In this document: positions 3,028-20,650 of the stretch, in pieces
Numbering within the stretch: the first letter of the stretch is position 1
How the letters are laid out: every line of letters begins with the position of its first letter
NCBI GenBank assembly: GCA_963804645.1
Contig: CAWDRG010000004.1
Location: forward strand, 1 to 64,000
DNA from: an uncultured Bacillota bacterium
Lineage (GTDB): Bacteria; Sysuimicrobiota; Sysuimicrobiia; Sysuimicrobiales; Segetimicrobiaceae
DNA: 64,000 bases
Direction of reading: 5' to 3'
Notes under the pieces: model-generated
The model's database searches: none
What the model was told of the DNA's origin: nothing
What the model saw: the letters and a program-made list of their open reading frames with translations, nothing else
Program-made: the position numbers and the translations under genes

Positions 3028-4494
3028 ATGGCGAGTGGTTCTGGCCCTGGAAAGTGCTCGAGGACGCCTGCAGCCGTTCTAATCGACTTTCTGCGCTCGT
3101 TCGTGACCCCGCGCGCCGTCCTCCTCTCGATTCTCGGCCTCGCTGCCGTGTTCGTGTTGGCCCCCCGCGCCGACGCGCTGCCGAGCTTCGCGGGGCAGAC
3201 TGGGCTGCCGTGCAGCGCCTGTCACGTCGGGGGGTTCGGACCTCAGCTCACGCCGTTCGGCATGAATTTCAAGGCAACGGGCTACACGATGGGCGGGGGC
3301 ACCGGCACCTGGTCGAAGATTCCGCTCAACCTCCAGTTGGAGCCGAGTTACACCCAGCTCGCGACGGCCCGGCCGACCGCCCCGACGGGGTACGGCACGA
3401 ATAACTTCACCACGCCGGGATGTGCCTCGTTCCTGGTCGCCGGCGGCAAGACCTACAACAACGGCACATTCGGCATCGGCGGCGTCGAAAAAGTATGGAT
3501 GAATCTGAGCAACGCGTTTGTCGCTCAGACGGGCACCATCCTGTCCGAGGGCCCCTCGGACCTCAAGCTGACCAACCCTACCACCCTGCACGGTGCGCCG
3601 CTCGTGTGGGGCTTCGATGCGAACAACAAGACAACCGAGGGCGATCCCTACAATACCCTCTATGGCTACGTGTATCCCTACATCAGCGGCACGAACACCG
3701 TGTCCCCGGGCACGAGCCTCAAGATGAGCGGGCTCGGCAACACCGTCTACGGACTGAGCCTGTTCGCGCTGTGGAACAACGAGATCTACGTGCAGGCGGG
3801 GGTCTACGGGACGTGGAGTTCGCAATTCATGACCACGATCGGCAAGAGCCCCTCAAGCGTGGGGTACATCCAAGGCAGCGCACCGTATTTCCGGCTCGCG
3901 TGGCAGCACTCGTGGGACACGAACTTCCTCGAGGTCGGCGGGGTGTTCATGAATATCCCACTCGGGCAGATCTCGGGGATCCCCAACCCGGCGGCGCAGA
4001 ACACCTATACCGACTGGGGGTTTGATGCGACGTACCAGCGAACGATGGGGCCCGGCATGTTTGCGGCGACCAGCAACCTGCTGTTCGAGAGTCAGAGCCT
4101 GGGCGCATCCTTCGGCGCCGGCAAGTCCACGTACTCCTCCGACTCGCTGACCCAGTTCCGCATCGCCACGTCCTATTGGTGGCTGCAAAAGTACGGCGTC
4201 GTCCTGGCCTACACCGCGACCACCGGGAGCAGCGATCCGAAGTTGTATCCCTCCGCGGCGCTCACGGGGTACGCAAATGGCAGTCCGAACTCGCAGGCGA
4301 TCATCGCGGAACTCGATTGGTCGCCCTGGGGCGCCGACACCGATCACACCGGCTATCCCTGGCTGAATATGCGCGTCGGGCTGCAGTACACGTACTACAT
4401 TCAGTTCAACGGCGGGACGACGAACTACGATGGGCACGGGCGCAACGCGAGCGACAACAACGTGATCATGCTGTACACGTGGTTCTCGTTCTAA
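3028..4494 (+). CDS. cyc2: Cyc2-like outer-membrane monoheme cytochrome c-porin fusion
   Basis: Signal peptide ending ADA, then LPSFAGQTGLPCSACH..PQLTPFGMNFKATGY (CXXCH at 3211-3225), matching the Cyc2 N-terminal heme domain; beta-strand-rich body; C-terminus QYTYYIQFNGGTTNYDGHGRNASDNNVIMLYTWFSF ends in Phe like outer-membrane barrels; GGGGAG RBS before ATG 3028. Confidence 0.82.
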   Translation: MASGSGPGKCSRTPAAVLIDFLRSFVTPRAVLLSILGLAAVFVLAPRADALPSFAGQTGLPCSACHVGGFGPQLTPFGMNFKATGYTMGGGTGTWSKIPLNLQLEPSYTQLATARPTAPTGYGTNNFTTPGCASFLVAGGKTYNNGTFGIGGVEKVWMNLSNAFVAQTGTILSEGPSDLKLTNPTTLHGAPLVWGFDANNKTTEGDPYNTLYGYVYPYISGTNTVSPGTSLKMSGLGNTVYGLSLFALWNNEIYVQAGVYGTWSSQFMTTIGKSPSSVGYIQGSAPYFRLAWQHSWDTNFLEVGGVFMNIPLGQISGIPNPAAQNTYTDWGFDATYQRTMGPGMFAATSNLLFESQSLGASFGAGKSTYSSDSLTQFRIATSYWWLQKYGVVLAYTATTGSSDPKLYPSAALTGYANGSPNSQAIIAELDWSPWGADTDHTGYPWLNMRVGLQYTYYIQFNGGTTNYDGHGRNASDNNVIMLYTWFSF

Positions 4495-4560
4495 GGGGGA
4501 GGTTCCGGACTGAACAGAGAACCGTGAGATTAGAGATCCGTGAGATTGCGGAGGGCAGCA

Positions 4561-6043
4561 ATGAACCGGGGCCGGTGGACGCTTACTTTGATGATCGCGG
4601 CCGCGTTGGCCGTCGGGGCGGGAGCGCCCTCCGCGCGCGCGGGTGCCGCGGCGTCACTTGCGGTGACGCCTGCGCAGGGGCCGGTCGGGACGCACGTCCA
4701 GGTCGCCGGTACCGGCTACGCGCCCCGGGCGTCGGTGACGTTTGTCTGGCAGACGGCGAACGGCAGTTACCGGACGCAGGTAAGCCCGTCCGGCGTGAAT
4801 TTCTTCGGATACGCGTACGATCCCGCGCAGACCACGCTCGGCAGCGCGGTGGCGGACTCCCAGGGGCGGGTGGCGGCGTCATTCGCGATCCCGGAGGACA
4901 TCGGCGGCGCGCACCTGATCGCGGCCGTCGCGGGGCAGCAGCCGGTGGCGCAGTCGGCCTTCCGAGTCGTGTTCGGCGCGACGATGACCCCGCTGAGCGG
5001 CCCGGTGGGCACGCCGATCGAGGTCACGGTCCATGGACAGGGCCCGGACCCGTGGAGCACCACGGCGGTGCGCTACGACAACCACTTCACTGGGTTCGTG
5101 TCCGCGGTGACGACACATGGGACAGCGCACGCCCGCTTCCTGGCGGCCGGCGGGCCAGGGCCGCACGTCATTCAACTCAGCAGTGCCTCCAACGCGACGC
5201 CGTATCTGAACGCGCAGGAGGGCCCGGGCTTCCTGCTTCGCCATCTCTCCTTGGACCGGTCCTGGACGTTTACCGTGACGGGGAACACCGCGGTGCCGCC
5301 CAACCGGCTGGACTGGCCGGCGGAGAGCCGGGTGGCCCGGCTCGCACAGGATGCTCCCGGGCGATGATCCCGCCCGGAGGTCAGCCCGCGCCTGGGGTCT
5401 CGCTGCTCCCGACGCCCGCGTCCGGGCCGGTGCTGTCCCACGTCGATCTGACCGCCAAAGGGCTGCAGCCCCGTAGCCAAGTGCAGGTCGTGTGGGTCAC
5501 GATGGGCCAAGGCAACCGGATGACGGGGATGTCGCCGGTCACGACGAGTCCGCTGTTCGCCACCGCCGCCAAACCGGACGGGACGCTCAGCGGCCAATTC
5601 ACCGTGCCCGAGGACCTGGGCGGGTGGCACCTGATCGAGCTCGTGCAGAACGGTAAGGCGCTGAGCTCTGCCCCGTACTTCGTCACGCGAAGCTTGGTCG
5701 CGGTGGCCCCGACCCGCGTCAAGGCGGGCCAGCAATTCAAGGTGGAGATCAAGGGGATCGGCTGGACCGAGATCGACAACGGCGTCGCGGTTAACTACGA
5801 CAATGCGTACGAGGGATATGCGTGCGGATTCAACAGCCGCGGCGACGTCACGCTCTACCTGACGGCGACCGGGGCGCCGGGAGTGCACCTGATCGACCTC
5901 TACCCGATGCTGTACCAGGGACACGGCCAGCCGCCCTGGACGTATCAGGTGCCGCAGCTGACGGCGCTCGAGGACGGTCCAGGCCTCGGCGCTCGGCTAC
6001 GGGCTTCCGATCGTGCGACGTCGCCGTCACGGTCGTGCCGTAA
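4561..6043 (+). CDS. Exported beta-rich protein with an internal duplication (about 490 aa), interrupted by apparent frameshifts near 5357, 5990 and 6017
   Basis: Signal peptide; two halves share GPV..., F.IPEDIGGAH / FTVPEDLGGWH and YDN...G.PG.H.I motifs; the second half lies in the frame of ORF 4176..7136 and a plausible end VAVTVVP* lies at 6043. Confidence 0.65.
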
Positions 6044-6062
6044 GCCCGTCGTTGGACCTCGG

Positions 6063-7136
6063 GTGACGGCGGGAGGCAGCGCGGCGGCCGCGGGACGACT
6101 GACACGACCGGGCACTGCCGGCGTGGGTGCGGTGACGTTATGTGCCTGCCTCGCGGCGGGCGCGCTGCTTCTCTGGTGGGCGGCGTTCGGTCCGATCGCG
6201 GCGGCATCCGCTGCGGCGACGGCGGGCACGGGCACGGCTGGCGAGATCCGGGGCACGGTGTTCGTTCGCTCGTTCCCGGCGCATCCGGTGGCGGGCCAGC
6301 GCGTGCGCCTCGAGATCGTCGAGCGCGGATCCACCTCGACGCGGGACACGACGGCCGATCCGCAGGGCCGCTTTACGTTTGCCGGCCTCCCGCTCGGCGG
6401 GCTGCGCGTGTTCCTGGTGCAGGTGGACTATCGCGGAGTGCCCTACACGCGCCGCGTCGAGTTGACGCCGGCGGCGCCCACGAGCGACGTGCCGTTCGCC
6501 GTCTTCGAGTCCACCGAGGACCGGGCGGCGGTGCACGGGACGGTGGCGTTCGGGGTCCTCGAGCCCCTGCAGCGCGGACTGCGCGTCAGCATCATTCAGC
6601 GCCTGGAGAATGACACCGACCGCGCCGTGGTGGTGACCGAGGAGGATCCGCTCGTGTTCCCGCTCCCGGACGTGTCCCCGAGCCCGCGGGGGACCGAGCC
6701 GGTCGAGTTCGTCGGCGGATGGCACGACCCACAGGCGGTGCGCGGCGCGATCACGGATGCGATTCCCGTGCTGCCCGGCGTCATGGAGGTTGCGTACGCG
6801 TTTGGGTTCGAACCGCGCGCCACGTCGGCGACGCTGCGGTGGCGATTTCCGTACGGCGCGACGGACGTGGAGTTGCTCGTGGCCGCGGACCGCGGCATCG
6901 GGGTGTCCGGGAGCGACCTGCACGCCGCCGGCGCGGTGACCGAACGCGGACAGCGCTACGCGCGGTGGTCCGGCGGTCCCGTGAATCCCGGCGCGGCGGT
7001 CTCGGTGCGACTCGACGGGCTGCCGGTGTTCGCGGACCACTGGCCCGAGATCGTCGCGGGCGTGTTTGCGCTTGCCCTCGCGTGCGGCCTGGCGGCGGCG
7101 TTGCGCCGAACGCCCGCGCCGGTGGCCGCACGATGA
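6063..7136 (+). CDS. Membrane-anchored protein with carboxypeptidase-regulatory-like (Ig-like) domain, paralog 1; start uncertain
   Basis: N-terminal hydrophobic signal, VRLEIVERGSTS..TADPQGRFTFAGLP, C-terminal TM; clearly similar to 11565..12542. Confidence 0.7.
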   Translation: MTAGGSAAAAGRLTRPGTAGVGAVTLCACLAAGALLLWWAAFGPIAAASAAATAGTGTAGEIRGTVFVRSFPAHPVAGQRVRLEIVERGSTSTRDTTADPQGRFTFAGLPLGGLRVFLVQVDYRGVPYTRRVELTPAAPTSDVPFAVFESTEDRAAVHGTVAFGVLEPLQRGLRVSIIQRLENDTDRAVVVTEEDPLVFPLPDVSPSPRGTEPVEFVGGWHDPQAVRGAITDAIPVLPGVMEVAYAFGFEPRATSATLRWRFPYGATDVELLVAADRGIGVSGSDLHAAGAVTERGQRYARWSGGPVNPGAAVSVRLDGLPVFADHWPEIVAGVFALALACGLAAALRRTPAPVAAR

Positions 7137-7245
7137 TGCGGGTGCGCGCCGCGATTTGCGAAGGACAACGCGGCACCTTGGAGAAGTGCATATCAGCGGT
7201 CTCGTTGTACGGCACGATGGGCATGTCCGAGTGAGGGAGATGACG

Positions 7246-7770
7246 ATGATGCGAAGTGGATGGGCTTCGATGCGCGGGCGATGGATCGCACTCGTATGTC
7301 TGGGTATCCTGGTGTCGGCGTGGGCGGGACCCGGACACGGCACGCCGGCCTCGCAGACGCGGGCGACCTACGACGCGCTCCCTGTCGAGACGGCGCTCGC
7401 GGCGTCCCCGCAGCCCGGCGCCGCCGTGTACGGGCAGTTCTGCGCGGCCTGTCATCAGGCGGCCGGCCAGGGAATGCCGGGCGCGTTCCCGCCCCTTGCC
7501 AAGGATCCCATCGTCAACGGCGATCCGGACTACGCGGTCCGAGTCGTGCTGTACGGCCTGCAGGGGCGCGTGTCGATCAACGGACAGACGTACAACAGCG
7601 CCATGGCCGGACTCGCCGGTTCGATGACCGACGAGCAGATCAGCCAGGCCCTGACCTACGTCCGCAGCTCGTGGGGCAACAACGCTCCGGCCGTGAGCGC
7701 CGACGCCGTGAAAGCGCAGCGGGCGATCCCGGGCACGCCGCAAGACAACGCGGCCAAGCATCCCAAGTAG
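7246..7770 (+). CDS. Class I monoheme cytochrome c
   Basis: Signal peptide, CAACHQAAGQGMPGAFPPLA, distal Met (SAMAG), LTYVRSSWGN; RBS GAGGGAG. Confidence 0.92.
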   Translation: MMRSGWASMRGRWIALVCLGILVSAWAGPGHGTPASQTRATYDALPVETALAASPQPGAAVYGQFCAACHQAAGQGMPGAFPPLAKDPIVNGDPDYAVRVVLYGLQGRVSINGQTYNSAMAGLAGSMTDEQISQALTYVRSSWGNNAPAVSADAVKAQRAIPGTPQDNAAKHPK

Positions 7771-7860
7771 CGCTGCGGGCGCGCCTCGACGCGGTCGCGT
7801 ACTCCGCGCGCGGCGGACCGCGGAACGGCTCGCGGCTCGCCGCGCCGGGGGAGTCCGTCG

Positions 7861-7889
7861 TTGAAACGCCAATCGGCGTCTGTTATCGT
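7861..7889 (+). promoter_or_regulatory. Sigma70-type promoter of the ccm operon (probably leaderless)
   Basis: TTGAAA-N17-TATCGT with TGn extension, 9 nt before GTG 7899; no Shine-Dalgarno. Confidence 0.55.
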
Positions 7890-7898
7890 TAGTTTGAC

Positions 7899-8588
7899 GT
7901 GATGACACACCGACGTGTCCCCGGATCATCGGACGCCCTGCTCGCGTGGGCGTGCTTCGCCGTGATGCTGCTCGCCCTGTACGGGGCGTTCGTGTACGCG
8001 GCGCGGGAAGCCGTGATGGGGGACATCCAGCGCATCTTCTACGTGCACCTGCCGCTCGCGTGGGTGGGCTTCGTCGCGTTTGGGCACGCGGCGTGGGCGG
8101 GCGTCCAGTATCTTCGCACGGGACGGCGCGAATGGGACATCGCGAGCGCCTCTGCGGCGGAGGTCGGCGTGCTGTTCGCGACGCTCGTGATCATCACCGG
8201 GTCCCTGTGGGCGCGCCCGGTGTGGGGCACCTGGTGGACGTGGGACCCGCAGCTCGTGACGTACCTGATCCTGTGGCTGATCTACGTCGGGTACCTCGTG
8301 CTGCGCGCCGCGGCGGGCGACGACCCGCGGCAGGCCAGGTTCGCGGCGGTGTTCGCGATCGTGGGCTTCGTCGACGTGCCGCTCGTGTGGCTGTCGGCGC
8401 GCTATCTGCGGGCGCTCAGCCCGGTCGTCTTCACGATGCACAGCGTCGGGCTCGCCCCGTCCATGGTGTGGGCGCTGCTGGCCGGGCTGGTCGCGTGGAG
8501 CCTCCTGTACGTGCTGCTCGTGCGCACGAGGATCCGCCTCGGCATCCTCGACGCCCGCGTGCAGGCGCTGACCGATGCGCGCGCCTAG
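7899..8588 (+). CDS. ccmC: Cytochrome c biogenesis heme exporter CcmC
   Basis: RIFYVHLP and WGTWWTWDPQL (WWD domain), multiple TM helices. Confidence 0.9.
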   Translation: MMTHRRVPGSSDALLAWACFAVMLLALYGAFVYAAREAVMGDIQRIFYVHLPLAWVGFVAFGHAAWAGVQYLRTGRREWDIASASAAEVGVLFATLVIITGSLWARPVWGTWWTWDPQLVTYLILWLIYVGYLVLRAAAGDDPRQARFAAVFAIVGFVDVPLVWLSARYLRALSPVVFTMHSVGLAPSMVWALLAGLVAWSLLYVLLVRTRIRLGILDARVQALTDARA

Positions 8589-8591
8589 ACC

Positions 8592-8747
8592 ATGACGTAT
8601 CTCTTCTGGGCGTTTGCGGTGGTGTGGGTCGGGCTCTTCGTCTACCTCTACGGACTCACGCAGCGGAGCCGGCGGCTTGAGCACGAGCTCGACGCCCTGC
8701 GCGAGGAGCCCCGCACGGCCGCGCCCTCCGACGGAGCGCCCCGGTGA
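8592..8747 (+). CDS. ccmD: CcmD family small membrane protein (51 aa, absent from the ORF track)
   Basis: MTYLFWAFAVVWVGLFVYLYGLTQRSRRLEHELDALRE; lies between ccmC and ccmE with GTGA overlap. Confidence 0.8.
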   Translation: MTYLFWAFAVVWVGLFVYLYGLTQRSRRLEHELDALREEPRTAAPSDGAPR

Positions 8748-9205
8748 GCTCCCTGCAGCCGGCCGCGCCCGATCCGCGCCCCCGGACTCTGGGACGGAGC
8801 GCCCGCCGTACGGCGGTGTTTGTGATCGGGACGATCGTGCTCATCCTTTCGCTCGCGTACCTCGTGTACGGGGGCATTCAGCAGGGGGCCACGTACTGGG
8901 TCACCGTCAGCGAGCTCCAGCAGCGGGCGCCCGGGACGCTGCCGGCCCGGGTGCGCCTCGGCGGGACCGTGCAGCCCGGCACGATCCGGTGGGACGCGTC
9001 CCACCGGCATCTCACGTTCATGGTCACCGACGGCCAGCACGCGCTGCCGGTCGCGTACAGCGGGGTGGTTCCGGACATCTTCGCGGAGGGCCGTCAGGTC
9101 GTGGTCGAGGGGACGCGCGACCCCGGCGGCACGTTCCAGGCGACGACGCTGCTGGCGAAATGTCCGACGAAGTACAACGCGGCGGATCCGGCGCCCTCGC
9201 AGTGA
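8744..9205 (+). CDS. ccmE: Heme chaperone CcmE, Cys-type (CPTKY)
   Basis: VRLGGTV, YSGVVPDIFAEG.VVVEG, LLAKCPTKY. Confidence 0.92.
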   Translation: MSSLQPAAPDPRPRTLGRSARRTAVFVIGTIVLILSLAYLVYGGIQQGATYWVTVSELQQRAPGTLPARVRLGGTVQPGTIRWDASHRHLTFMVTDGQHALPVAYSGVVPDIFAEGRQVVVEGTRDPGGTFQATTLLAKCPTKYNAADPAPSQ

Positions 9206-9232
9206 CGCGCCTCCGCCGCCGGCGAGCCGGCT

Positions 9233-11221
9233 GTGGCTGACCTCGGCCGATTCGCGCTGCTCGGCGCGCTCGCCCTCGCCGTCTATGCGCTCGTGTCCGC
9301 GTCGCTCGGCGCGCGGCTGCGGCGCCCGGAATTGGTTCGAAGCGCCGTGCGCGCGCTCGTCGCCGCCGCGGCGCTTGAAGGGCTCGCCGCCCTGCTGCTC
9401 TGGATCGCGCTCGGCACCCGCGACTATCGGTTCGCCTACGTCGTCACCCACGTCAGCAACGCGCAGCCGCTGATCTACGACCTCACGTCGTTCTGGGGCG
9501 GGATGGAAGGATCGCTGCTGCTCTGGGCGCTGCTGCTCTCCGGGTACACGCTGCTCGCGGTGCGCGGCGTCGGCCGGGTCCGTCCGCCGCTCGTGGGCGG
9601 GGTGACCGCGGTGTGCGCCGGCGTCTCGACGTTTTTCCTGTTCATGCTCGCCTTTGTCACGCCCCCGTTCGTGACGGTGCCGTTCCCGCCGGCCGACGGC
9701 AACGGGATGAACCCGCTCCTGCTCAACCCCTGGATGGCGATCCACCCGCCGACCCTCTACCTGGGGTTCGTCGGGCTCACCGTGCCGTTCGCGATCGTGG
9801 CCGCGACCCTCGCCGCGGGCCCGTCGGGGGAGGGGGGCGTGCTGCTCTCGCGCCGGTGGATGCTGTGGGCGTGGTACTGCCTCAGCATGGGGTTGATGTT
9901 CGGGGCGAAGTGGTCGTACGTGGTGCTGGGGTGGGGCGGGTACTGGGCGTGGGACCCGGTCGAGAACGCCGCGCTGATGCCGTGGCTCGTCGCGACGGCG
10001 TTTCTGCACTCGGTGCAGATCCAAGAGCGCCGCGAGATGCTCACGAAATGGAACGTGGTGCTGGTGATCCTGGCGTTCGGGCTGTCCATCTTCGGCACGT
10101 TTCTGACCCGCAGCGGCGTGTTGAGCAGCATCCACTCGTTCACGCAGTCGTCGCTCGGGACGTTCTTTCTCGGGTTTCTCGCGCTCGCGATGCTCGTCGC
10201 GTTCGGCCTCGCGGCGTGGCGGTGGGACGATCTTCGGAGCCGGAATGAGCTGGACGCCGCGGTCTCGCGCGAGAGTGCGTTCCTCCTCAACAACGTGCTG
10301 TTTCTCGCCGTGGCGTTTTCGGTGTTCCTCGGGACCGTGTTTCCCATCGTGTCCGCGGTCCTGACGGGGCGCGCCATCAACGTGGGCCCGCCGTTCTTCG
10401 ATCACATCGTGGTCCCAATCGCGTTCGCGATCCTGCTGCTGATGGGGATCGGCCCGCTGATCGCCTGGCGGCGCGCGTCCCTCGACAGCCTGCGGCGCGA
10501 TTTCATGGCCCCGGGCGCGGCCGGCGTGCTCGTAGGGGTCGGGTTGCTGCTCGCCGGGATGCGCCAGCCGGGCGCCGTCCTCGTGTTTGCGCTGTGCGGA
10601 TTCGTAGCCGCGACCATCGCGCTCGAGTTCGCCCGGGGCGTGCGGGTGCGCCGCGCGCACCGGGATGAGACCGCCGCGCACGCGCTCCTGGGACTGATCG
10701 CCGGCAACCGCCGGCGCTACGGGGGCTACGTGGTACACCTCGGGATCCTGCTGCTGTTCTGCGGCATTACCGGCTCCTCGGTGTTTGCCACGCAGCAGAT
10801 CGTCACCCTCCGCCCGGGGCAGGGGGCCGCGGTCGGGGAGTACCAGGTCCGGTTCGACGGCCTGACGCAGGCCACGCAGGGCGGCGCGCTGTCGATCGGC
10901 GCACAGCTGCGCGTCTTCGAGGGCGCGCGGGACCTGGGGACGTTTGCCGCCCGCCGCAACATGTTTCTCGCCACCCAGGACTCGACCACCGACGTGGTGC
11001 TGCGGAGCACGCCGCGGGACGATCTGTACATCACGCTGATCGGTTGGACCCAAGACGGCCGCGCGACAATCCGCCTGCTCGTTAACCCGCTCGTGTCGTG
11101 GATGTGGGCCGGCGGCCTCGTGCTGACGCTCGGGGCGGTGCTCGCGATGATTCCCGAGCGGCGTGTGGCACCGGACGACCTCCCCGTGCCCGCAGGGGCG
11201 CTGAGCCCGGGCCGCCCGTGA
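9233..11221 (+). CDS. ccmF: Cytochrome c heme lyase CcmF
   Basis: WGGMEGSLLLW, IHPPTLYLG, LGWGGYWAWDPVENA, RSGVLSSIHSF, NPLVSWMW. Confidence 0.96.
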   Translation: MADLGRFALLGALALAVYALVSASLGARLRRPELVRSAVRALVAAAALEGLAALLLWIALGTRDYRFAYVVTHVSNAQPLIYDLTSFWGGMEGSLLLWALLLSGYTLLAVRGVGRVRPPLVGGVTAVCAGVSTFFLFMLAFVTPPFVTVPFPPADGNGMNPLLLNPWMAIHPPTLYLGFVGLTVPFAIVAATLAAGPSGEGGVLLSRRWMLWAWYCLSMGLMFGAKWSYVVLGWGGYWAWDPVENAALMPWLVATAFLHSVQIQERREMLTKWNVVLVILAFGLSIFGTFLTRSGVLSSIHSFTQSSLGTFFLGFLALAMLVAFGLAAWRWDDLRSRNELDAAVSRESAFLLNNVLFLAVAFSVFLGTVFPIVSAVLTGRAINVGPPFFDHIVVPIAFAILLLMGIGPLIAWRRASLDSLRRDFMAPGAAGVLVGVGLLLAGMRQPGAVLVFALCGFVAATIALEFARGVRVRRAHRDETAAHALLGLIAGNRRRYGGYVVHLGILLLFCGITGSSVFATQQIVTLRPGQGAAVGEYQVRFDGLTQATQGGALSIGAQLRVFEGARDLGTFAARRNMFLATQDSTTDVVLRSTPRDDLYITLIGWTQDGRATIRLLVNPLVSWMWAGGLVLTLGAVLAMIPERRVAPDDLPVPAGALSPGRP

Positions 11222-11538: not shown

Positions 11539-11564
11539 GGCGGCGGCGTTCGGCGGGAAGCGAT

Positions 11565-12542
11565 GTGCGTCCTTCGTGGAGGGGGGCCCGTTGGGCCCTC
11601 CTCCTCTGTCTGGTCGTGTGCGCGGCGCTGGGATCGGTGCCCGTGTCGTCCGCCGACGGGCCGGGCGGGCTGATTCGCGGGCACGTGCTCGATCGGACCT
11701 CGGCCGTCCGCGCCGTCGCCAGGCAGCCGGTGCGTCTCGAGATCGTCGAGCGCGGCTCGACCTCGGAGCGCCTCACGGTCACGGACGCGCGCGGGGCGTT
11801 CGCGTTCCCCGGCCTGCCGGTGGGCGGCGGCGTGCCGCGCGTGTTCCTCGTCCGGACTGAGTATCAGGGCGTGCCGTACGGCACGCGGGTGGAGTTGGCC
11901 GCCGAGACACCGACGCAGACGGCCGACCTCGACGTGTATCAAGCGACGCGCGACCACGCGGCCGTGCACGGCACGATCGCGTTCGCCGTGGTGGAGACAA
12001 GCCAGGGCGCGGTGCGGATCAGCGTCATCCAGCGTTTGGAAAACACGACCCGCCGCGCGGTCGTGGGGAGCGATGCCGACCCCCTCGTCTTCCCGCTGCC
12101 CCTCGGCGCGCAGGCGGTCGAACTGATCGGAGGGTGGCAGCACCCGCAGGTCGCGCACGGGGCGATCACCGACGCGATCGCCGTCCCGCCCGGGGTGCTC
12201 CAGGTCGGCTACGCGTACGACCTCGCGCCCCGCGCCAGCCGGTTCACCGTCGACTGGGCCCTACCGTACGGGGCCGCCGACGTCGAGATGTTGGTCAACG
12301 ATCCCGCGCTCATCCTCTCGGGCGCCGGGGTGCGGCGCGCGGGCGTGGTCGCGGACTCCGGCCGGCATTTCACGCGGTGGTCCGCCGGAGCGGTGCCGCG
12401 CGGCGGGGAGATCGCGTGGACATTCGACGGGCTCGCCGGACGGGACGACCGCTGGCCGGCAAGTGCGGCGATCGTGCTGTGCGTGCTGCTCGGGGGCGGG
12501 CTCACCGCGGCGCTGCGGCACCGCCCGGCGGCGGCGTCCTAG
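11565..12542 (+). CDS. Membrane-anchored carboxypeptidase-regulatory-like domain protein, paralog 2
   Basis: Signal peptide, PVRLEIVERGSTSERLTVTDARGAFAFPGLP, C-terminal TM; paralog of 6063..7136. Confidence 0.75.
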   Translation: MRPSWRGARWALLLCLVVCAALGSVPVSSADGPGGLIRGHVLDRTSAVRAVARQPVRLEIVERGSTSERLTVTDARGAFAFPGLPVGGGVPRVFLVRTEYQGVPYGTRVELAAETPTQTADLDVYQATRDHAAVHGTIAFAVVETSQGAVRISVIQRLENTTRRAVVGSDADPLVFPLPLGAQAVELIGGWQHPQVAHGAITDAIAVPPGVLQVGYAYDLAPRASRFTVDWALPYGAADVEMLVNDPALILSGAGVRRAGVVADSGRHFTRWSAGAVPRGGEIAWTFDGLAGRDDRWPASAAIVLCVLLGGGLTAALRHRPAAAS

Positions 12543-12724
12543 GGCGGGCGCCGGGGGAGTCGCTTTCGGCCGGCCCGGAAGGAGTGGGTCGCGGCGCCGT
12601 GGAACCACAAACTCCCGCGAGCGTTTTTTCGCCTGGAGCCGCGCCGGCCGGTAGCATCCGAACGGCGTCATCCCGCGTCGTGGACACCGGCCCGGTACCC
12701 GTGGGCATGGAAGAGAGGAGCGGC

Positions 12725-13594
12725 ATGCTGAGAGGGTTATGGGTGCGTCCTCGAGCAACCCTGCTGGTGCTCGCGGCGGCCGTCGCGGCCGCCGGATGCC
12801 AACCGCAGGTCAGCGTCGAGCGGACGCGGACATCCGTCGCGCTGCCGCCGACGCAGGAGGTCGAGATCGCGCTCGTGGCCGATGAACAGGGGCACCCGAT
12901 CACGCCCGACGCGGTGCACGGGAAGCAGGTCTTCGATGCCAACTGCGCCGTGTGCCACGGGATGTCGGGGAAAGGGAACGGCCCCATGGCGCCGACGCTC
13001 GTCGAACCCCAGCATGACGTGCTGGCCGCGCTCGTGGGCCTGTTTGGGATCACGGTGCACCGCCCGAATTTGCCGAGCAGCCCGGCGGACTTCACCAACC
13101 GGGATCTTGAGAGCGTGATCACCCCGGCGATCATGTACCAGACGGTGACCCAGGGACGCGCGTACACGGCGATGCCGGCGTTCGGGCCGCAGGCGTCGTT
13201 CGGGGCGAACCAGGCGCAGCAGTTGACCAACGCGCAGCGGTGGGACGCGAACGTGTACGAGATGATGTTCCGGACCTCGCCGGAGGCGCTCAGCGCGGCG
13301 AAGCAGGTGTACGACGCGCAGTGCGCGCAGTGCCACGGGATGAACGGCGACGGCAAGGGGCCCCGGGGCGCCGAGATGGGCGCGCAGGTCTGGACGTGGG
13401 CGCACGGCACGGGACCGGGCATCTTCACCGACATCAACTACATGGTGCAGCGGAACGGCGCGGATCTGGCGAACGAGATCGCAGACGGCAATGGGATCAT
13501 GCCGAGCTACCGCGGCAAGCTGACCCCGGCGCAGGTGAACGGGCTCGTGGACTACGTCTACACGTTCTTTTACAAACACCCAGCGATCCAGTAG
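12725..13594 (+). CDS. Diheme cytochrome c lipoprotein
   Basis: Lipobox AAAGC; CAVCH and CAQCH, each followed by a MPAF/MPSY Met ligand motif; RBS GAGGAG. Confidence 0.9.
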   Translation: MLRGLWVRPRATLLVLAAAVAAAGCQPQVSVERTRTSVALPPTQEVEIALVADEQGHPITPDAVHGKQVFDANCAVCHGMSGKGNGPMAPTLVEPQHDVLAALVGLFGITVHRPNLPSSPADFTNRDLESVITPAIMYQTVTQGRAYTAMPAFGPQASFGANQAQQLTNAQRWDANVYEMMFRTSPEALSAAKQVYDAQCAQCHGMNGDGKGPRGAEMGAQVWTWAHGTGPGIFTDINYMVQRNGADLANEIADGNGIMPSYRGKLTPAQVNGLVDYVYTFFYKHPAIQ

Positions 13595-13635
13595 CGAATG
13601 CGGACGGGCGGCGACCGCGCGGGAGGGGCGATTCG

Positions 13636-14313
13636 ATGAAGCTCGAGAGGCGGGGGCTGATCAAGACGCTGGTGGCGATCCCGGTGATCGGGACGATCAT
13701 TGCGTTACTGTCCCCGCTGTTCCGGTTTCTGAAGCCGAACGACGGCGCGTGGAACATCTTCACGATCAAGCCGGACCTGCCCGCGGGCGGCGCCCAGGTC
13801 GTGGGGCGGGTGTCGCAGCTGGCGAAGCCGTGGGACTCGTTCTACTTCACCTACGTCCAGAAGTTCGTGCAGTACGATCCCGAGGGCGAAGAGGCGAGCA
13901 ACGTCCCAGGGGTCGCGATCCGGCTGCCGCAGAAGGTGAATTTCACCAACGCCGAGGGGTTTGTAGGGTTTCAGGGGGAGACCGACATCGTGTTGTTCTC
14001 GCGAATCTGCCCGCACCTCGGCTGCATCTTCAACTATGTCAGCGACTACCACGAGGTCACGGCGGGGTACGGGGGGATGGAACCACCGGCCTCCGAGCAC
14101 CACGCGCTGATGGCGTGCCCGTGTCACTTCAGCATCTACGATCCGACGTATCCCGGCGACCCCGGCAACGTGATCTCGGGGCCGGCTCCTCGGGGCGCGC
14201 GGTACTTCCAGTTCGAGATCCAGGGTGACAACATCGTCGTCACCGGCGCCGAAGTCGGCGCGATCGCGAAGGCACGGCCGAGCCGCGCGCAGGCGCCGCG
14301 CGGCGACGCCTGA
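13636..14313 (+). CDS. Rieske [2Fe-2S] subunit of a cytochrome bc-type complex
   Basis: Tat-like ERRGLIK plus TM; CPHLGC and CPCHFS boxes; GPAPR. Confidence 0.95.
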   Translation: MKLERRGLIKTLVAIPVIGTIIALLSPLFRFLKPNDGAWNIFTIKPDLPAGGAQVVGRVSQLAKPWDSFYFTYVQKFVQYDPEGEEASNVPGVAIRLPQKVNFTNAEGFVGFQGETDIVLFSRICPHLGCIFNYVSDYHEVTAGYGGMEPPASEHHALMACPCHFSIYDPTYPGDPGNVISGPAPRGARYFQFEIQGDNIVVTGAEVGAIAKARPSRAQAPRGDA

Positions 14314-14337
14314 GCCGCAGCAACCACGGACGGGAGG

Positions 14338-15495
14338 GTGGCGGTGGAGGCGGTCCTCGCAAATCTCAAGGAGTGGTTCCAGGACCGAAAGCAGCACCTG
14401 GACCTCTTCGACGAGACGAAAACCGGGAAACAGGACAACCCGCTGTACATCCTCGGGAACCTGGTCTGGCTGTCGTGGATGGCTGTGATCGTCTCCGGGA
14501 TCGTGCTGATGCTCTGGTACATCCCGACAACGACCGGCGCGTACCGCTCGATCCAGCACATCACCCTCGACCTTCCGTTCGGCTGGCTCGTGCGCGGCGT
14601 GCACAAATACGGCGGCGACATGCTGATCACGGTGATCACGCTGCGGATCTACCGGATGTACTTCGCGGGCGAGTATAAGAAGCCGGGCGAGCTGTCGTGG
14701 ATGATCCTGTTCCTCTCCCTCGTGCTGGCGATGGTCTCGGGGGTCACCGGGTACACGCTCGAGTGGAACCAGCGCGCGTTCTGGGCGGCGAAGGTCATCC
14801 TGACCGTCCCGACCTACTACGACCAGATCCCGCTCGTGGGGAACCTCGGGCTCGGGCACGCGATCGCGTACATCTTCCTCGGCGGTCCGGCGCTCGGCCA
14901 GGGGACGCTCACCCGGTTCTACGCGATCCACTTCGGCATCTCGATCATCGCCGTGATCATCATTGAGATGTTCGTCTACCGGACGCGGCGCCGGCACCTC
15001 AACCTGTCGGCGTTCGCGATCGTCCTCGTCCTCGTGTTTCTCGCGTTCGTGAGCTTCATGAACCTGGCGGACGTCGGCGACTGGGCGAACAACAACCGCA
15101 CGCCGCTGCCGGTCCTGTCCGACTGGTACTTCCTGGCGCTGTACCAGGTCGTGAAATACATGCCGCCGCTGTGGGCGGGGGTGGCGCCGGCGCTGCTGAT
15201 CGGCTACGGCATGCTGGTGCCGTTCCTCGACCGGACGAAGGAGACGCGGGCGACGGAGCGGCCGTTCTTCTTCGTGATCGGGCTGCTCGCGCTCGCCTAC
15301 TGGATCGGATTCAGCGCGCTCATCCTGCTGAACATCGCGGTCATCTCGCGGGATCCGCCGATCATCTGGGGGATCACCGTCGTGGTCTGCCTGCTCGCGT
15401 TCGTCTGGGAGATGGGGTACCGGCGGCGCAAGGCGCAGCGTGCCGCGGCGCAGGCCGCGGCCCGCGCCGCGGCACGGCCCGCCGGGGCGGCGTAG
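14338..15495 (+). CDS. Cytochrome b subunit 1 (b6 plus subunit IV type fusion) retaining only two of the four heme His ligands
   Basis: WLVRGVHKYGGD, TGYTLEWNQRAFWA, TRFYAIHF, SDWYF (PEWY equivalent); the +14 positions are Arg and Phe instead of His. Confidence 0.9.
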   Translation: MAVEAVLANLKEWFQDRKQHLDLFDETKTGKQDNPLYILGNLVWLSWMAVIVSGIVLMLWYIPTTTGAYRSIQHITLDLPFGWLVRGVHKYGGDMLITVITLRIYRMYFAGEYKKPGELSWMILFLSLVLAMVSGVTGYTLEWNQRAFWAAKVILTVPTYYDQIPLVGNLGLGHAIAYIFLGGPALGQGTLTRFYAIHFGISIIAVIIIEMFVYRTRRRHLNLSAFAIVLVLVFLAFVSFMNLADVGDWANNNRTPLPVLSDWYFLALYQVVKYMPPLWAGVAPALLIGYGMLVPFLDRTKETRATERPFFFVIGLLALAYWIGFSALILLNIAVISRDPPIIWGITVVVCLLAFVWEMGYRRRKAQRAAAQAAARAAARPAGAA

Positions 15496-15496
15496 C

Positions 15497-15814
15497 ATGC
15501 GGCGGAAGCACTTGTTCTACGTCCTACTCGCCGCGGCCACGTTCGGGCTGAGCGAATTCTTGGCCGCCTGGCGCGCGTGGCGGGCGGCCCCGACGCTCGA
15601 TGCCGCCGCGGCCGTGGTGGCGCTCGCGGTGGGCCTCGTCGCCGTGATGCTGTGGCTCGGGTTCCTGCTGTACGAGGTGGACCGCGCGGCGGGGCGGATT
15701 CGCCGCCCGGTGGGCCTCTACGAGTGGGTGCTGGCGCGGCGCGCGCCCGACCGGCCGGCGGGATGGACCGGCGGCGGCGCCGCCGGACACGGCGGGGGGA
15801 GGGGAACGGCGTGA
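15497..15814 (+). CDS. Small membrane protein (2 TM)
   Basis: Two hydrophobic segments; starts 1 nt after the cyt b stop. Confidence 0.6.
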   Translation: MRRKHLFYVLLAAATFGLSEFLAAWRAWRAAPTLDAAAAVVALAVGLVAVMLWLGFLLYEVDRAAGRIRRPVGLYEWVLARRAPDRPAGWTGGGAAGHGGGRGTA

Positions 15815-16005
15815 GTGACCGCGCGTCCGCGTACACGATGTGGATCGTGCTCTTGTCGGCGCTGAGCTTCGTGTGCGTGCTCGGGATGGTGTGGGGCGAA
15901 CTGATGAACCATCATCACGTGACCGCGGCGCTGATCGGCGTGGTCCTGCTGGCGTACTCGTTCATCCTGCTGCTGCTGCGCAAGGGGGGATTCACGGGTG
16001 TATAA
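15811..16005 (+). CDS. Small membrane protein (2 TM, HHH in loop)
   Basis: GGAGG RBS, GTGA overlap; WIVLLSALSFVCVLGMVW..NHHH..ALIGVVLLAYSFILLLL. Confidence 0.65.
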   Translation: MSDRASAYTMWIVLLSALSFVCVLGMVWGELMNHHHVTAALIGVVLLAYSFILLLLRKGGFTGV

Positions 16006-17155
16006 GCGGGCGCTCGGCCGGCTGCTCGACGCGACGCTGCGGCTGGACACCGTCGTCGGGCGGGTCTACCCGGACGATTTCAACCCGCTGTACTACACGG
16101 GCGGTCTCGCGAACCTGTTCCTGACCATCCTCGTCCTGTCCGGGATCTTTCTGTTCTTCTATTACGTGCCGTCGTTCAACGACGCGTACGCGTCGGTCCA
16201 GTTCCTGACCGTGAACGTGCCGTACGGCCAGATCATCCGCGGGATTCACCGCTACGCGGCGGACGGCTTCATCATCGTCATTTTGCTGCACTTCTTCCGC
16301 AACTGGTTCACCGAAAGGTTCCGGTTCTCGCGGGACGAGCCGTGGATCAGCGGGATGATGCTGCTGGCCTTCGCCGGCTTTATCGGCGTGACCGGCTACA
16401 TTCTCGTCTGGGACCAGCGCAGCGAGGCGCTGGTCGCGATGACCGGCAACGCGGCCTCCCACGTGCCGCTGGTCGGCGGGTGGCTGCGGGACGCGCTGTT
16501 CGGGGGCGCGGGGCTGACGGACCTCCTCCTGCCGCGCATCCTGTTCCTCCACGTCGGCCCGGCGGTCGCGCTGTACGTGTTCCTCTGGTGGCACTACACC
16601 CGCATCCGGGCGCCGAAGGTGTGGCCGCCCGCGGTGTGGACCCTGTTTGCGCTCGGGTTCATCCTGCTGCTGACCGGGCTCTTGCCGGTGACCAGCCAGC
16701 CGGCGGCCTCGGCCCTGCAGCCGCCCACGGGCTTCGCCGTGGACTGGCTGTTCCTGTCGCCCTACTGGGCGCTCCGCGTGCTGCCGCCGCTGGTGCTGGT
16801 GGCGCTCGGGGTCGTGCTGGTCGCGTACGGGCTGTACATCCCGTACCAGCTGCCGGAGACCCGCGCGGAACTCGGGATCAAGGACTCGGGAGTCGCGCAG
16901 GTGCTCGACGCGAACTGCACCGGCTGCGAGCTGTGCTACTACGACTGCCCGTACAACGCGATCGTGATGGTGCCCTCGCCGAACCCCGGGGTGACCAAGG
17001 CGGCGCAGGCCCGGAAGCTGCGCGCCGTCGTGCTGGAGTCCCGCTGCGTCGAATGCGGGATCTGCGTCGGGGCCTGCCCGTTTGAGGCGCTCGAACTTCC
17101 GGGGTATCTCCAAGTGGACATCCAGAAGAAGGTGTTGAGCGCATGCCAGAGCTAA
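15998..17155 (+). CDS. Cytochrome b subunit 2 fused to a C-terminal 2x[4Fe-4S] ferredoxin domain
   Basis: H-x13-H pairs HRYAADGFIIVILLH and HVGPAVALYVFLWWH; CTGCELCYYDCP and CVECGICVGACP. Confidence 0.9.
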   Translation: MYKRALGRLLDATLRLDTVVGRVYPDDFNPLYYTGGLANLFLTILVLSGIFLFFYYVPSFNDAYASVQFLTVNVPYGQIIRGIHRYAADGFIIVILLHFFRNWFTERFRFSRDEPWISGMMLLAFAGFIGVTGYILVWDQRSEALVAMTGNAASHVPLVGGWLRDALFGGAGLTDLLLPRILFLHVGPAVALYVFLWWHYTRIRAPKVWPPAVWTLFALGFILLLTGLLPVTSQPAASALQPPTGFAVDWLFLSPYWALRVLPPLVLVALGVVLVAYGLYIPYQLPETRAELGIKDSGVAQVLDANCTGCELCYYDCPYNAIVMVPSPNPGVTKAAQARKLRAVVLESRCVECGICVGACPFEALELPGYLQVDIQKKVLSACQS

Positions 17156-17679
17156 CGGGAACGGGCACCCCCCAGACGCCGCAGAGCGCGCCCGCGGCGC
17201 GCGGCGCCCGCATCGTCGGATTCTTGTGCGACTGGGCGGTTGCGTCCGACGGCCTCGTGCGCGACGACGGCACGATGCGGGATCTGCCCGGCGTCACGCT
17301 GATCAAGATCCCGTGCTCGGGGTTTACGCGGCCCGCGTGGCTGGAGTTTGCGCTCCGCAACGGCGCCGAGGGGGTCTTCGTCTGCGGCTGTCCGCTCGGC
17401 GACTGCTTCAACCGCTACGGCAACAACCTCATCGGCGACCGCGTCGAGCAGCTGCGTCGGCGTCTCGAGCGTCAGCGCATCAATCCTGAGCGCATCGGGG
17501 CGATCTTCTACCGGCGCGACGCGCAGGCGGAGTTCGTGAGCGCGGTCCGTGCGTTCGCGGAGAAGGTGGCCGGGCTGCCGGGCCCGGTGCTGCCCCCGGC
17601 GAGACCGCCGGCCGCCCCGCGCGGGGCCGCGCCCGCCAAGCCCGCGGAGGCCCCGGCCCCCGAACAGGAGGGAACATAA
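17143..17679 (+). CDS. MvhD/FlpD-like [2Fe-2S] protein (hydrogenase iron-sulfur subunit family)
   Basis: IVGFLCDW, IKIPCSG, GAEGVFVCGCPLGDCFNRYGN, INPERI. Confidence 0.85.
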   Translation: MPELTGTGTPQTPQSAPAARGARIVGFLCDWAVASDGLVRDDGTMRDLPGVTLIKIPCSGFTRPAWLEFALRNGAEGVFVCGCPLGDCFNRYGNNLIGDRVEQLRRRLERQRINPERIGAIFYRRDAQAEFVSAVRAFAEKVAGLPGPVLPPARPPAAPRGAAPAKPAEAPAPEQEGT

Positions 17680-17816
17680 TGGCGGAACGCGCGCCGGCCG
17701 CGAAGCCCGAAGCGCCCAGCGCGAGCGTGGTGTACTGGCGCTACCTCGTGTTCTGGGTGCTGTTGTTCGCGTTTCTGTTCTTCGTGTCGCTGTACGGCAT
17801 CGTCGCGGACGTCTAG
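17679..17816 (+). CDS. Single-TM small protein (45 aa, absent from the ORF track)
   Basis: AGGAGG RBS, TAATG overlap; MAERAPAAKPEAPSASVVYWRYLVFWVLLFAFLFFVSLYGIVADV. Confidence 0.65.
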   Translation: MAERAPAAKPEAPSASVVYWRYLVFWVLLFAFLFFVSLYGIVADV

Positions 17817-17864
17817 CGCGGACCCGGACCGCCCGCCGCGCCCCCCGGTCCAGGAGAACACGCC

Positions 17865-18881
17865 TTGCGGCGAGAACTGACCACCCCCATGGAACTCGGC
17901 CAGATCTACGCGCCCGTGCAGGAGGACCTTCTCGCGCTGGACGCGCTGCTGCGCGCGGAGCTCGTCAGCGACGATCCGTTCATCGGGGAGCTGGTCGCGC
18001 ACGTCCTCAGCACGCACGGCAAGATGATTCGTCCGGCCCTCGTGTGCCTGAGCGCCCTCGCCGGCGCGGCGGAGCCGGCCGACCGCCCCCCCGCGCGCCT
18101 CGAGATCTCGGGGGCCGTCGAGCTGATCCACGTCGCCTCGCTCGTGCACGACGACGTCATCGACGTCGCGGATCTGCGCCGCGGGCAGGCGACCGTCAAC
18201 TCGCTGTGGGGGAACCAGGTGGCGGTGCTGCTGGGCGACTATCTGTTCAGCAAGGCGTTTCATCTGCTCGCCCGCCTGCGCGCCGCGGAGCTCGCCGCGG
18301 CGATGGCGTGGGCGACGGTGCGGATGAGTCAGGCCGAAATCAAGCAGATCAAATACGGAAACACGGCGCATACCGACGAGGCGATCTACTTCGACATCAT
18401 CGAGGGGAAGACCGCGCAGCTGATGAGCGCCGCGTGCCGCTGCGGAGCGATGACGGCCGGGGCCGACGCCCGCGCGGTCGAGGCCCTTGCCGCGTTCGGC
18501 TTGGAGTGGGGCATGGCGTTCCAGATCACCGACGACGCGCTCGACGTCACGTCGAGCACCTCCTCGCTCGGCAAGCCGATCGGCAGCGACATTCAAACGG
18601 GCAAGGTGACGCTGCCCGTCATCCACGCGCTGCGGCGCGCGCCCGAGGCCGACCGCCGCCGCCTCGAGACGATGCTGGCGGCGGCGAACGGGGACGCCCG
18701 GGACGGGGATCCCGGAGAGATCCGGGAGATCCTCTCGCGCAGCGGCGCCGTGGAGTACGCGCTCGGGGTCGCCCGCACACGGGCGGCCCGCGCGGCCGCG
18801 GCCCTCGAGCCGCTGCGCGACTCGCCGGCCCGGCGCAGTCTCGGCGCCCTCGTCGAGTTCGTGACCGCGCGCACGAGCTAG
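17865..18881 (+). CDS. Polyprenyl diphosphate synthase (quinone side chain; HepT/IspB-like)
   Basis: GKMIRP, HDDVID..RRG (FARM), GKTA, FQITDDALD (SARM). Confidence 0.93.
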   Translation: MRRELTTPMELGQIYAPVQEDLLALDALLRAELVSDDPFIGELVAHVLSTHGKMIRPALVCLSALAGAAEPADRPPARLEISGAVELIHVASLVHDDVIDVADLRRGQATVNSLWGNQVAVLLGDYLFSKAFHLLARLRAAELAAAMAWATVRMSQAEIKQIKYGNTAHTDEAIYFDIIEGKTAQLMSAACRCGAMTAGADARAVEALAAFGLEWGMAFQITDDALDVTSSTSSLGKPIGSDIQTGKVTLPVIHALRRAPEADRRRLETMLAAANGDARDGDPGEIREILSRSGAVEYALGVARTRAARAAAALEPLRDSPARRSLGALVEFVTARTS

Positions 18882-18890
18882 GCCGCGGCG

Positions 18891-20647: not shown

Positions 20648-20650
20648 ACC

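Follow-up and report, generated by a model that had tools for sequence, protein, structure and literature searches.

Gene content of the locus

The stretch of DNA studied here, hereafter the window, comprises 64,000 nucleotides (positions 1 to 64,000 of contig CAWDRG010000004.1, assembly GCA_963804645.1) from an uncultured bacterium of the phylum CSP1-3/Sysuimicrobiota, the genome of which amounts to 5.3 Mb on 22 contigs. The G+C content of the window is 66-74%, and genes were called from third-position G+C and frame plots, followed by Pfam and NCBIfam scans. This gene model revealed a run of about 19 co-oriented genes on the + strand from 3028 to 18881, which encodes a Cyc2-like protein, periplasmic cytochromes c, cytochrome c maturation proteins, a Rieske protein, two cytochromes b, one of them fused to a ferredoxin domain (cyt b-Fd), an MvhD-like protein, and a polyprenyl diphosphate synthase. 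A preliminary description of the locus had named all of these gene classes, and each of them was recovered on the + strand. Its remarks that tatA lies near the run (20948-21133; 60 bits in Pfam) and that the window holds no terminal oxidase (none among the open reading frames (ORFs) scanned, in sets of 23 and 32 proteins) were likewise confirmed. Absent from its list were two paralogous membrane proteins of the CarboxypepD_reg type, here called CPDreg1 (6063-7136) and CPDreg2 (11565-12542). We describe the run as two neighbouring units, a cassette around the Cyc2-like gene (unit A, 2810-7854) and a respiratory operon (unit B, 7855-18881).

A cassette beside a conserved operon

A search with the cyt b-Fd protein yielded 71 loci in species-representative genomes. 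About 49 of these are 54-96% identical and carry the labels Sysuimicrobiota or "ANGP1" or are (mis)labelled as metagenome-assembled genomes (MAGs) of Armatimonadota or Bacillota, which places the genome of the window in CSP1-3/Sysuimicrobiota, while more distant homologues (26-38% identity) belong to Chitinophagaceae, Caenarcaniphilales, Gammaproteobacteria, and Bdellovibrionales. When 27 window proteins were compared with the 71 loci by tblastn, the block from ccmC to the polyprenyl synthase proved to have the same gene order in related loci throughout the phylum; no match in any of the 71 loci, most of which extend only 10 kb upstream, was obtained for the Cyc2-like protein, the secreted protein encoded next to it, or the monoheme cytochrome c of unit A. 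Because of this limited reach, the nearest relative, locus L005, was taken as the decisive case. Its cyt b-Fd is 96% identical to that of the window, and the flanking genes for a substrate-binding protein and a short-chain dehydrogenase/reductase (SDR) are 83-95% and 87% identical, respectively. In blastn, positions 2-1746 of L005 correspond to 1065-2809 of the window and positions 1844-2991 to 7855-9000, with 97 bp between the two segments in L005, so that unit A appears as an indel of 5,045 bp (2810-7854). In L005, the SDR gene is thus directly followed by ccmC, without the cassette.

The intergenic gap between the gene for the monoheme cytochrome c and ccmC (128 bp, 7771-7898) is among the largest in the run, and it contains a promoter-like site, TTGAAA-17-TATCGT (7861-7889, + strand), which was found in a consensus scan and also occurs in L005, where the cassette is missing; this is a weak, consensus-only indication. 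Across 2500-21500, the scan gave 3 promoter-like sites (0.9 expected) and 11 terminator-like sites (7.0 +/- 2.9 expected), and is not informative apart from the conserved site ahead of ccmC. We distinguish two units because L005 lacks the 5,045 bp, because the promoter-like site is kept with and without the cassette, and because of the gap at the junction.

Material from both units was recovered in four peat RNA libraries from one study, whose contigs cover, with at least 93% identity, the genes for the Cyc2-like protein, the secreted protein, CPDreg1, and the monoheme cytochrome c as well as ccmC/E/F, the diheme cytochrome c, and the Rieske/cytochrome b junction. These contigs show presence in RNA libraries only. 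The junction between the genes for the Cyc2-like and the secreted protein is bridged in 4/4 runs; the gap 7771-7898 between cytochrome c and ccmC is unbridged by the RNA-library pieces listed (11 pieces are unlisted), and such missing cover proves nothing.

Distribution across the phylum

The two units differ in their occurrence among 94 genomes of the phylum, two of which (G017 and G025) are unpublished. At a best E <= 1e-120, 81/94 contain an orthologue of cyt b-Fd, and 89/94 contain any match, compared with a Cyc2 homologue in 11/94, 10 of which belong to one family; none of the homologues is more than 58% identical to that of the window. Of these 11 genomes, 2 (the window genome and G061) have Cyc2 upstream of ccmC, G060 is probably a third, and 7 have it at another place; G079 is counted in neither group, as its Cyc2 is encoded on a contig of 4.7 kb. 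A comparison of 13 Cyc2 loci from the other ten genomes illustrates these differences in position: in G067 and G077, Cyc2 and the operon are on separate contigs, and no cassette gene occurs in the 6.4 and 11.4 kb that precede ccmC, while the flanks of Cyc2 in G068, G063, G062, G058, and G020 are devoid of ccm and bc genes. The commonest neighbours of Cyc2 in the relatives are CPDreg1, a NarL-type regulator pair, cupredoxins, and a membrane protein of about 600 residues with a Fer4_5 domain.

Three observations on individual loci may be added here. The Cyc2 loci L090-L098 (G058, G060-G063) carry sulfocyanin-type cupredoxins, the Fer4_5 protein, LVIVD-repeat proteins, and a NarL-type two-component pair. 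G060 possesses two tandem Cyc2 genes. The most divergent Cyc2 homologue of the phylum (L100 on contig C25 of G020; 34-37% identity) is encoded near a phage-type integrase and a primase-polymerase gene, a context that hints at transfer on a mobile element.

Beyond the genomes, DNA of the window is held by peat metagenomes, and metagenome contigs also include a strain that is 98% identical. A metagenome scan with the Cyc2 protein returned 3 short loci only.

The Cyc2-like protein

The first gene of unit A (3028-4494, + strand) encodes a protein of 488 residues that is matched by no model in Pfam or NCBIfam and for which 1,195 homologues were found. The accessible text of Keffer et al. (2021, PMC8406198) gives as hallmarks of the Cyc2 family a signal peptide, one CXXCH motif, AXPXFAR[Q/K][T/Y] upstream and PXL downstream of it, and a 16-strand barrel. 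The window protein has a single CXXCH motif (CSACH) at residue 62, and a hydrophobic helix (residues 28-44) that ends in PRADA just ahead of the motif represents the predicted N-terminal signal feature. The motif region reads ALPSFAGQTGLPCSACH...GPQL, to be compared with the published AXPXFAR[Q/K][T/Y], CXXCH, and PXL; around the heme motif (...ALPSFAGQTGLPCSACHVGGFGPQL...), the spacing is as published and Gly replaces Arg. The upstream signature is therefore not strictly that of the family: ALPSFAGQT lies in the same register and matches it apart from this one substitution (R to G). A, P, F, and Q of the motif together with CxxCH are invariant in 38/38 aligned homologues, and homologues at 38-41% identity carry PAFARQT, with the Arg. 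PXL is present as GPQL, in which P72 and L74 are invariant in 38/38 homologues, at 5 residues past the His versus 4 in the accessible part of PMC8406198.

An AlphaFold2 model of the protein shows 16 strands between residues 100 and 487 (predicted local distance difference test score (pLDDT) 79), and its best Foldseek matches are 16-strand porins of the OmpT/OmpU/OmpF type (E ~1e-8 to 5e-11). An outer membrane to hold such a barrel is plausible because the genome has an Omp85/BamA gene. As far as the accessible text of PMC8406198 allows the comparison, the protein shares with Cyc2 of the iron oxidisers Acidithiobacillus and Mariprofundus PV-1 the putative N-terminal signal sequence followed by a single CXXCH, the spacing of the upstream motif (PSFAGQTGLPCSACH versus the published PXFAR[Q/K][T/Y]...CXXCH), the downstream PxL, the predicted 16-strand barrel, the length of about 490 residues, and an aromatic C-terminal residue; it differs in the Gly at the position of the signature Arg and in its host, a CSP1-3/Sysuimicrobiota bacterium. 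Judged by motifs and model, the product of 3028-4494 is a member of the Cyc2 family with one deviation in its signature, and the initial call of a Cyc2-type cytochrome-porin holds with that amendment.

Two further searches with this protein were set aside: a sequence search of the PDB returned chance matches only (E > 0.7), and the ESM Atlas gave porin-like neighbours and unnamed clusters of the "cytochrome c family", treated here as leads only.

The contig opens with what is left of a second Cyc2-type gene, a decayed 3' end (76-218, + strand). It corresponds to residues 438-488 of the Cyc2-like protein with 57% amino acid identity, contains two in-frame TAG codons, and is 74% identical in nucleotide sequence to 4351-4493. 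The remnant fits a history of repeated gain and loss of Cyc2 genes.

Other products of the cassette

The next gene (4540-6045, + strand) encodes a secreted all-beta protein without a Pfam match; its coding sequence is spread over three frames and broken near 5355, 5990, and 6017. It had been listed as two genes, "sec1" and "sec2"; the secreted coding sequence is indeed there, but it forms one gene that is broken in the assembly, as it is a single ORF of 491 residues in G060/G061 and of 500 residues in L117, a metagenome contig that is 96.6% identical. Contigs of the RNA libraries have one base fewer than the assembly both at 5990 and at 6017. The breaks are probably assembly errors and possibly signs of recent decay.

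CPDreg1 (+ strand) matches CarboxypepD_reg with 24.8 bits, which is below the cut-off. According to its AlphaFold2 model (pLDDT 87), three periplasmic beta-sandwich domains would lie between an N- and a C-terminal transmembrane helix, and a fold search with this model gave generic beta-sandwich matches only (TM score <= 0.32; Ost1/ribophorin, pilins, aminopeptidase domains). Searches retrieved only 61 homologues, all of them unnamed proteins from MAGs or metagenomes, and CPDreg1 adjoins Cyc2 in 7/13 Cyc2 loci of other genomes. While CPDreg1 is part of the Cyc2 cassette, its paralogue CPDreg2 (+ strand; assigned by its sequence identity to the CPDreg1 family, 48% to a CPDreg1 representative) sits inside the conserved ccm-bc operon and is kept between ccmF/I and the diheme cytochrome c in related loci.

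The cassette ends with a periplasmic monoheme class-I cytochrome c (7240-7770, + strand; CAACH, Cytochrom_C 39 bits), which is found in 0/71 cyt b-Fd loci but beside Cyc2 in G067 and G068. Pfam revealed no integrase or transposase domains in the cassette proteins, and no repeats flank the cassette beyond a 20-nt match of 85% (237-256 versus 2813-2832).

The Rieske/two-cytochrome-b operon

Unit B, all of it on the + strand, begins with ccmC, ccmD, ccmE, ccmF, and a CcmI-like ORF (7899-11538), of which CcmC, CcmE, CcmF, and the CcmI-like protein were assigned by Pfam/NCBIfam and ccmD, without a significant family match, was named from position and size only. CcmE (8744-9205) is of the Cys type, with CPTKY (Cys140) and hence CXXXY in place of HXXXY. 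Both forms occur in the phylum, as 11 of the 29 related loci covering the site are of the C type (CPT[KR]Y) and 18 of the H type. CcmB is encoded elsewhere (contig C18), and a Pfam scan of the operon found no CcmH, for which no genome-wide search was made. A Cys-type CcmE without CcmH is reportedly the mark of a variant System I maturation described by Allen and colleagues in 2006.

Downstream of CPDreg2 follow a lipoprotein-type diheme cytochrome c (12707-13594; CAVCH and CAQCH, Cytochrome_CBB3 76 bits) and a Rieske [2Fe-2S] protein with a twin-arginine N-terminus (13636-14313). The latter scores 17.2 bits in Pfam against a cut-off of 20.3 bits, and matches to Rieske-type NCBIfam models also remain below cut-offs; the ligands of the cluster are nevertheless all present in the two boxes CPHLGC (125-130) and CPCH (161-164), and the gene is conserved in related loci.

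For the cytochromes b, whose best sequence matches are cytochrome b6, non-equivalence had been proposed, and the alignments bear it out. The first, full-length one (14338-15495; Cytochrome_B 109 bits) has Arg and Met at both n-side His positions of cytochrome b6, and the two p-side His are kept. All 45 orthologues (high-scoring segment pairs of >40% identity and >300 residues, with more distant loci left out) share both p-side His, Arg at helix B +14, and the Qo motif SDWY, a variant of PDWY, and none of the 45 has a His at helix D +13..+16. This subunit consequently lacks the four His required for two hemes, which the second cytochrome b retains in 52/52 orthologues. The second (15998-17155; Cytochrome_B 104 bits plus Fer4 families) is fused to a predicted 2x[4Fe-4S] ferredoxin domain, of which the eight cluster Cys are kept in 51-52 of 52 orthologues, and its Qo motif is degenerate ([VLMI]D[WV][FL] across the 52). 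Two small membrane proteins without a family match in Pfam or NCBIfam (15497-15814 and 15838-16005) are kept between both cytochrome b genes in related loci.

The MvhD/FlpD-like [2Fe-2S] protein (17143-17679; FlpD 82 bits) is the single PF02662 match of the genome and has its five Cys. A model of the ferredoxin domain with MvhD reached a score of 0.87, with 0.01 for the best of 3 controls; the mark applied is reached by 116/157 solved complexes and 2/215 mismatched pairs, counts that are rough as own alignments were used. At least 95% of contacts agree between runs, with a partner pLDDT of at least 89. Residues 351-360, which hold the second cluster motif, and loop 54-64 of MvhD with Cys58 are part of the predicted interface, so that the cluster loops would face each other.

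The operon is completed by a membrane protein of 45 residues (17679-17816), which is conserved in family-level relatives, and by a long-chain polyprenyl diphosphate synthase, presumed to make a quinone side chain (17865-18881; polyprenyl_synt 233 bits, HepT-like 233 bits and below cut-off), which follows MvhD in most related loci extending that far. Further downstream, a histidine kinase, an ANTAR response regulator, and TatA (18891-21133, + strand; Pfam) are kept in relatives.

Adjoining the 3' end of the operon, the HisKA_2 histidine kinase and the response regulator with its ANTAR (RNA-binding antiterminator) domain occupy 18891-20647. The pair is retained there in part of the phylum and may regulate the respiratory operon. 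The remainder of the window encodes housekeeping functions (MreBCD, PBP2, RNase E/G, L27, Obg, LeuRS, and others).

Elsewhere in the genome, contig C11 (L113) carries a canonical Rieske protein and a cytochrome b-cytochrome c fusion beside COX2 and a COX1/COX3 fusion, and contig C22 (L112) a cytochrome b-cytochrome c fusion beside COX2/COX1. The Fe-S-wired complex encoded by unit B is, because of these modules, not the only bc-type module of the genome. Its four COX1 genes are all located on other contigs, and the oxidase adjoining the canonical Rieske and cytochrome b-c module is of the aa3 type.

Comparison with known systems

The fusion of a cytochrome b to Fe-S clusters has precedents, and the proposal that the architecture of the locus was undescribed did not stand in this respect: the accessible text of Kao & Hunte (2014, PMC4122944) already contains this fusion type as a "PDWF-FeS" clade of cytochromes b, with a 4Fe-4S domain and MvhD fused and no Rieske gene in the cluster. 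Unit B has in common with that clade, as presented there, the attachment of a 4Fe-4S domain to a complete cytochrome b and the association with an MvhD-type protein. It departs from the features of the clade, however, as its MvhD is a separate gene, its motif is VDWL rather than PDWF, and a Rieske gene is present; it also encodes a diheme cytochrome c and a second, one-heme cytochrome b.

Canonical bc1 and b6f complexes and menaquinol:cytochrome c reductases share with unit B a two-box Rieske protein, a cytochrome b of the b6 plus subunit IV type, and a c-type subunit. In contrast to them, the window encodes two different b subunits, which would take the place of a homodimer; one of these is without the n-side heme and probably without a normal Qi site, and the other bears cytoplasmic Fe-S clusters. 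Anammox bacteria possess Rieske/cytochrome b complexes with extra cytoplasmic redox subunits, for which quinol-driven bifurcation has been proposed; they are cited in PMC9325076. The idea that a low-potential electron passes to a cytoplasmic redox module and not to quinone is common to both, but there the module consists of an NAD(P)-type oxidoreductase and multiheme proteins, here of a ferredoxin domain and MvhD, with homology apparent in the core only.

With regard to the cassette, no literature link was found between the phylum and Cyc2. The terms Cyc2, Rieske, complex III, and iron do not occur in the main texts of the phylum papers PMC11604079 and PMC11962464, nor in 12 of the 14 supplement files of PMC11962464; gene tables in the remaining supplements of the two papers might list Cyc2 or bc genes. 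What is new here is the Cyc2 cassette in this phylum.

In Acidithiobacillus ferrooxidans, the rus operon has the order cyc2-cyc1-cox-rus. As in the cassette, an outer-membrane Cyc2 is encoded there together with a periplasmic c-type cytochrome, and the cassettes of the relatives also hold cupredoxins; that of the window, by contrast, has neither a cupredoxin nor an oxidase, and its secreted beta protein and CPDreg1 have no counterpart in the rus operon.

Interpretation of the two units

We read the locus as two neighbouring units, an optional Cyc2 cassette and a respiratory operon of the phylum that encodes an Fe-S-wired complex III with two cytochromes b, and assign this reading a probability of roughly 60%. 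In unit A, the most likely role of Cyc2 would be to exchange electrons with a substrate outside the cell, for instance Fe(II), and to pass them to periplasmic cytochromes, from where they could continue to any of the four heme-copper oxidases or to the c/Rieske side of unit B. In unit B, menaquinol would be oxidised at the Qo site (SDWY) of the one-heme cytochrome b, with one electron moving to the Rieske cluster and on to the diheme cytochrome c. The other electron would pass through the single p-side heme and, in a heterodimer, cross to the p-side heme of the second cytochrome b; from there it would travel via the n-side heme of that partner and the fused 2x[4Fe-4S] domain to the [2Fe-2S] cluster of MvhD in the cytoplasm and on to a putative cytoplasmic acceptor, which would instead be a donor if the chain runs in reverse. 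We infer the heterodimer as the most economical mechanism for unit B. The placement of the cassette upstream of ccmC, which recurs in some relatives, may stem from a common requirement for heme c maturation or from common regulation.

Several points weigh against this interpretation. The adjacency of the units is not random. G061, which belongs to another genus, alone repeats the order Cyc2, secreted protein, CPDreg1, ccmCDEF, ..., Rieske, cytochrome b; its ccmAB and ccmC genes are separated by the cassette together with two sulfocyanin-type cupredoxins and a two-component pair; G060 matches the left half of this arrangement (cassette between ccmAB and the contig end), so that the order probably recurs there, and the SDR-Cyc2 junction also exists in the metagenome contig L118 (~80% nucleotide identity). 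The paralogy of CPDreg1 and CPDreg2 could mean a physical link between the units, and transcription may read through from the cassette into ccmC. The RNA-library contigs may contain DNA, the runs were chosen by this same stretch, and such contigs cannot rank genes. As for unit B, the heterodimer, the heme-to-heme path on the p-side, and the direction of flow are inferred only, and the MvhD model may, we assume, reach its mark through likeness to solved HdrA-MvhD complexes. Fe(II) oxidation, finally, is no more than a candidate function, given the Gly in place of the signature Arg and the frequency of Cyc2 homologues in bacteria that do not oxidise iron.

This last point leads to a first alternative, in which the Cyc2-like protein does not oxidise Fe(II) but serves another redox or transport role, such as the use of another extracellular substrate or outward electron disposal. 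In its favour, the signature reads FAGQT and not FAR[Q/K][T/Y], and the neighbours in relatives include LVIVD proteins without an assigned role and the membrane protein with the Fer4_5 domain. The accessible text of PMC8406198 moreover places Cyc2 homologues in many non-iron-oxidising genera and regards function as uncertain outside the tested clusters; the Mariprofundus protein was assayed in that study for Fe(II)-dependent reduction after heterologous expression. Yet all other hallmarks of the family are kept (single N-terminal heme, PxL, predicted 16-strand barrel), and the DNA was found in peat metagenomes. Peat is a habitat in which Fe(II) is common. We consider such a role unlikely, if well worth bearing in mind.

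Alternatively, the cassette could lie near ccmC because its two c-type cytochromes need the maturation genes, as a matter of regulation or supply, with the electrons going to oxidases and the Fe-S-wired complex uninvolved. The location between ccmAB and ccmCDEF in G061 and G060, inside the maturation cluster, agrees with this, as do the four COX1 genes, one of them adjoined by a Rieske/cytochrome b-c module, and the company of cupredoxins instead of bc genes that Cyc2 keeps elsewhere in the phylum. However, most Cyc2 copies of the phylum are located away from ccm genes, so that proximity is not required, and the CPDreg paralogy is left unexplained. On balance, this explanation is rather improbable.

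The preliminary description had envisaged one dedicated pathway from extracellular Fe(II) through Cyc2 and cytochromes c to the Rieske/two-b complex and cytoplasmic Fe-S carriers. Its parts list stands: all parts are co-oriented and closely spaced, the cassette-ccm-bc order is shared with G061 and probably G060, CPDreg paralogues occur in both units, and the MvhD of the operon is the only one of the genome. The single conduit is not supported, as L005 and most of the phylum retain the operon without Cyc2, which is located elsewhere in 7/11 Cyc2-bearing genomes, and a conserved promoter-like site lies between the units. The finding that the description itself had named as adverse, relatives with the bc/ccm block but without Cyc2, was largely obtained (L005; 81/94 versus 11/94), while its corollary of pure chance adjacency is contradicted by the recurrence in G061. 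Moreover, direct transfer from Fe(II) or cytochrome c to the Fe-S wire on the inner side would be uphill with respect to redox potential and would also have to work against the membrane potential, so that only quinol-coupled bifurcation, and not a simple wire, could deliver such electrons, and the canonical Rieske and cytochrome b-c module beside the aa3-type oxidase offers Cyc2 electrons an ordinary downhill route. We regard one conduit as very doubtful.

Least probable of all is a recruitment of the cassette in a subset of CSP1-3 bacteria, in which the CPDreg paralogues would serve as a periplasmic adaptor, so that electrons from Fe(II) would reach the c/Rieske side and, in coupling with quinol oxidation at the one-heme cytochrome b, drive low-potential electrons to ferredoxin/MvhD; if true, this CPDreg-bridged route would lead from iron oxidation to reductant at the level of ferredoxin, bypassing reverse complex I.

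Taken together, the locus is a patchily distributed Cyc2 cassette inserted next to a phylum-wide operon for an Fe-S-wired complex III, and not one dedicated, undescribed conduit.

Implications

The picture of one conduit arises largely because a lineage-specific insertion adjoins a housekeeping operon, and neighbouring genes in one genome should not be equated with a pathway. Should the function of the cassette match that in known iron oxidisers, an uncultured phylum that is widespread in soil and peat would gain a role in iron cycling that is unassigned in the literature searched. The complex III variant, for its part, would be a natural asymmetric bc complex, in which one heme is missing on one subunit and an Fe-S wire is carried by the other, and could reveal how low-potential chemistry in the cytoplasm is linked to the oxidation of quinol.

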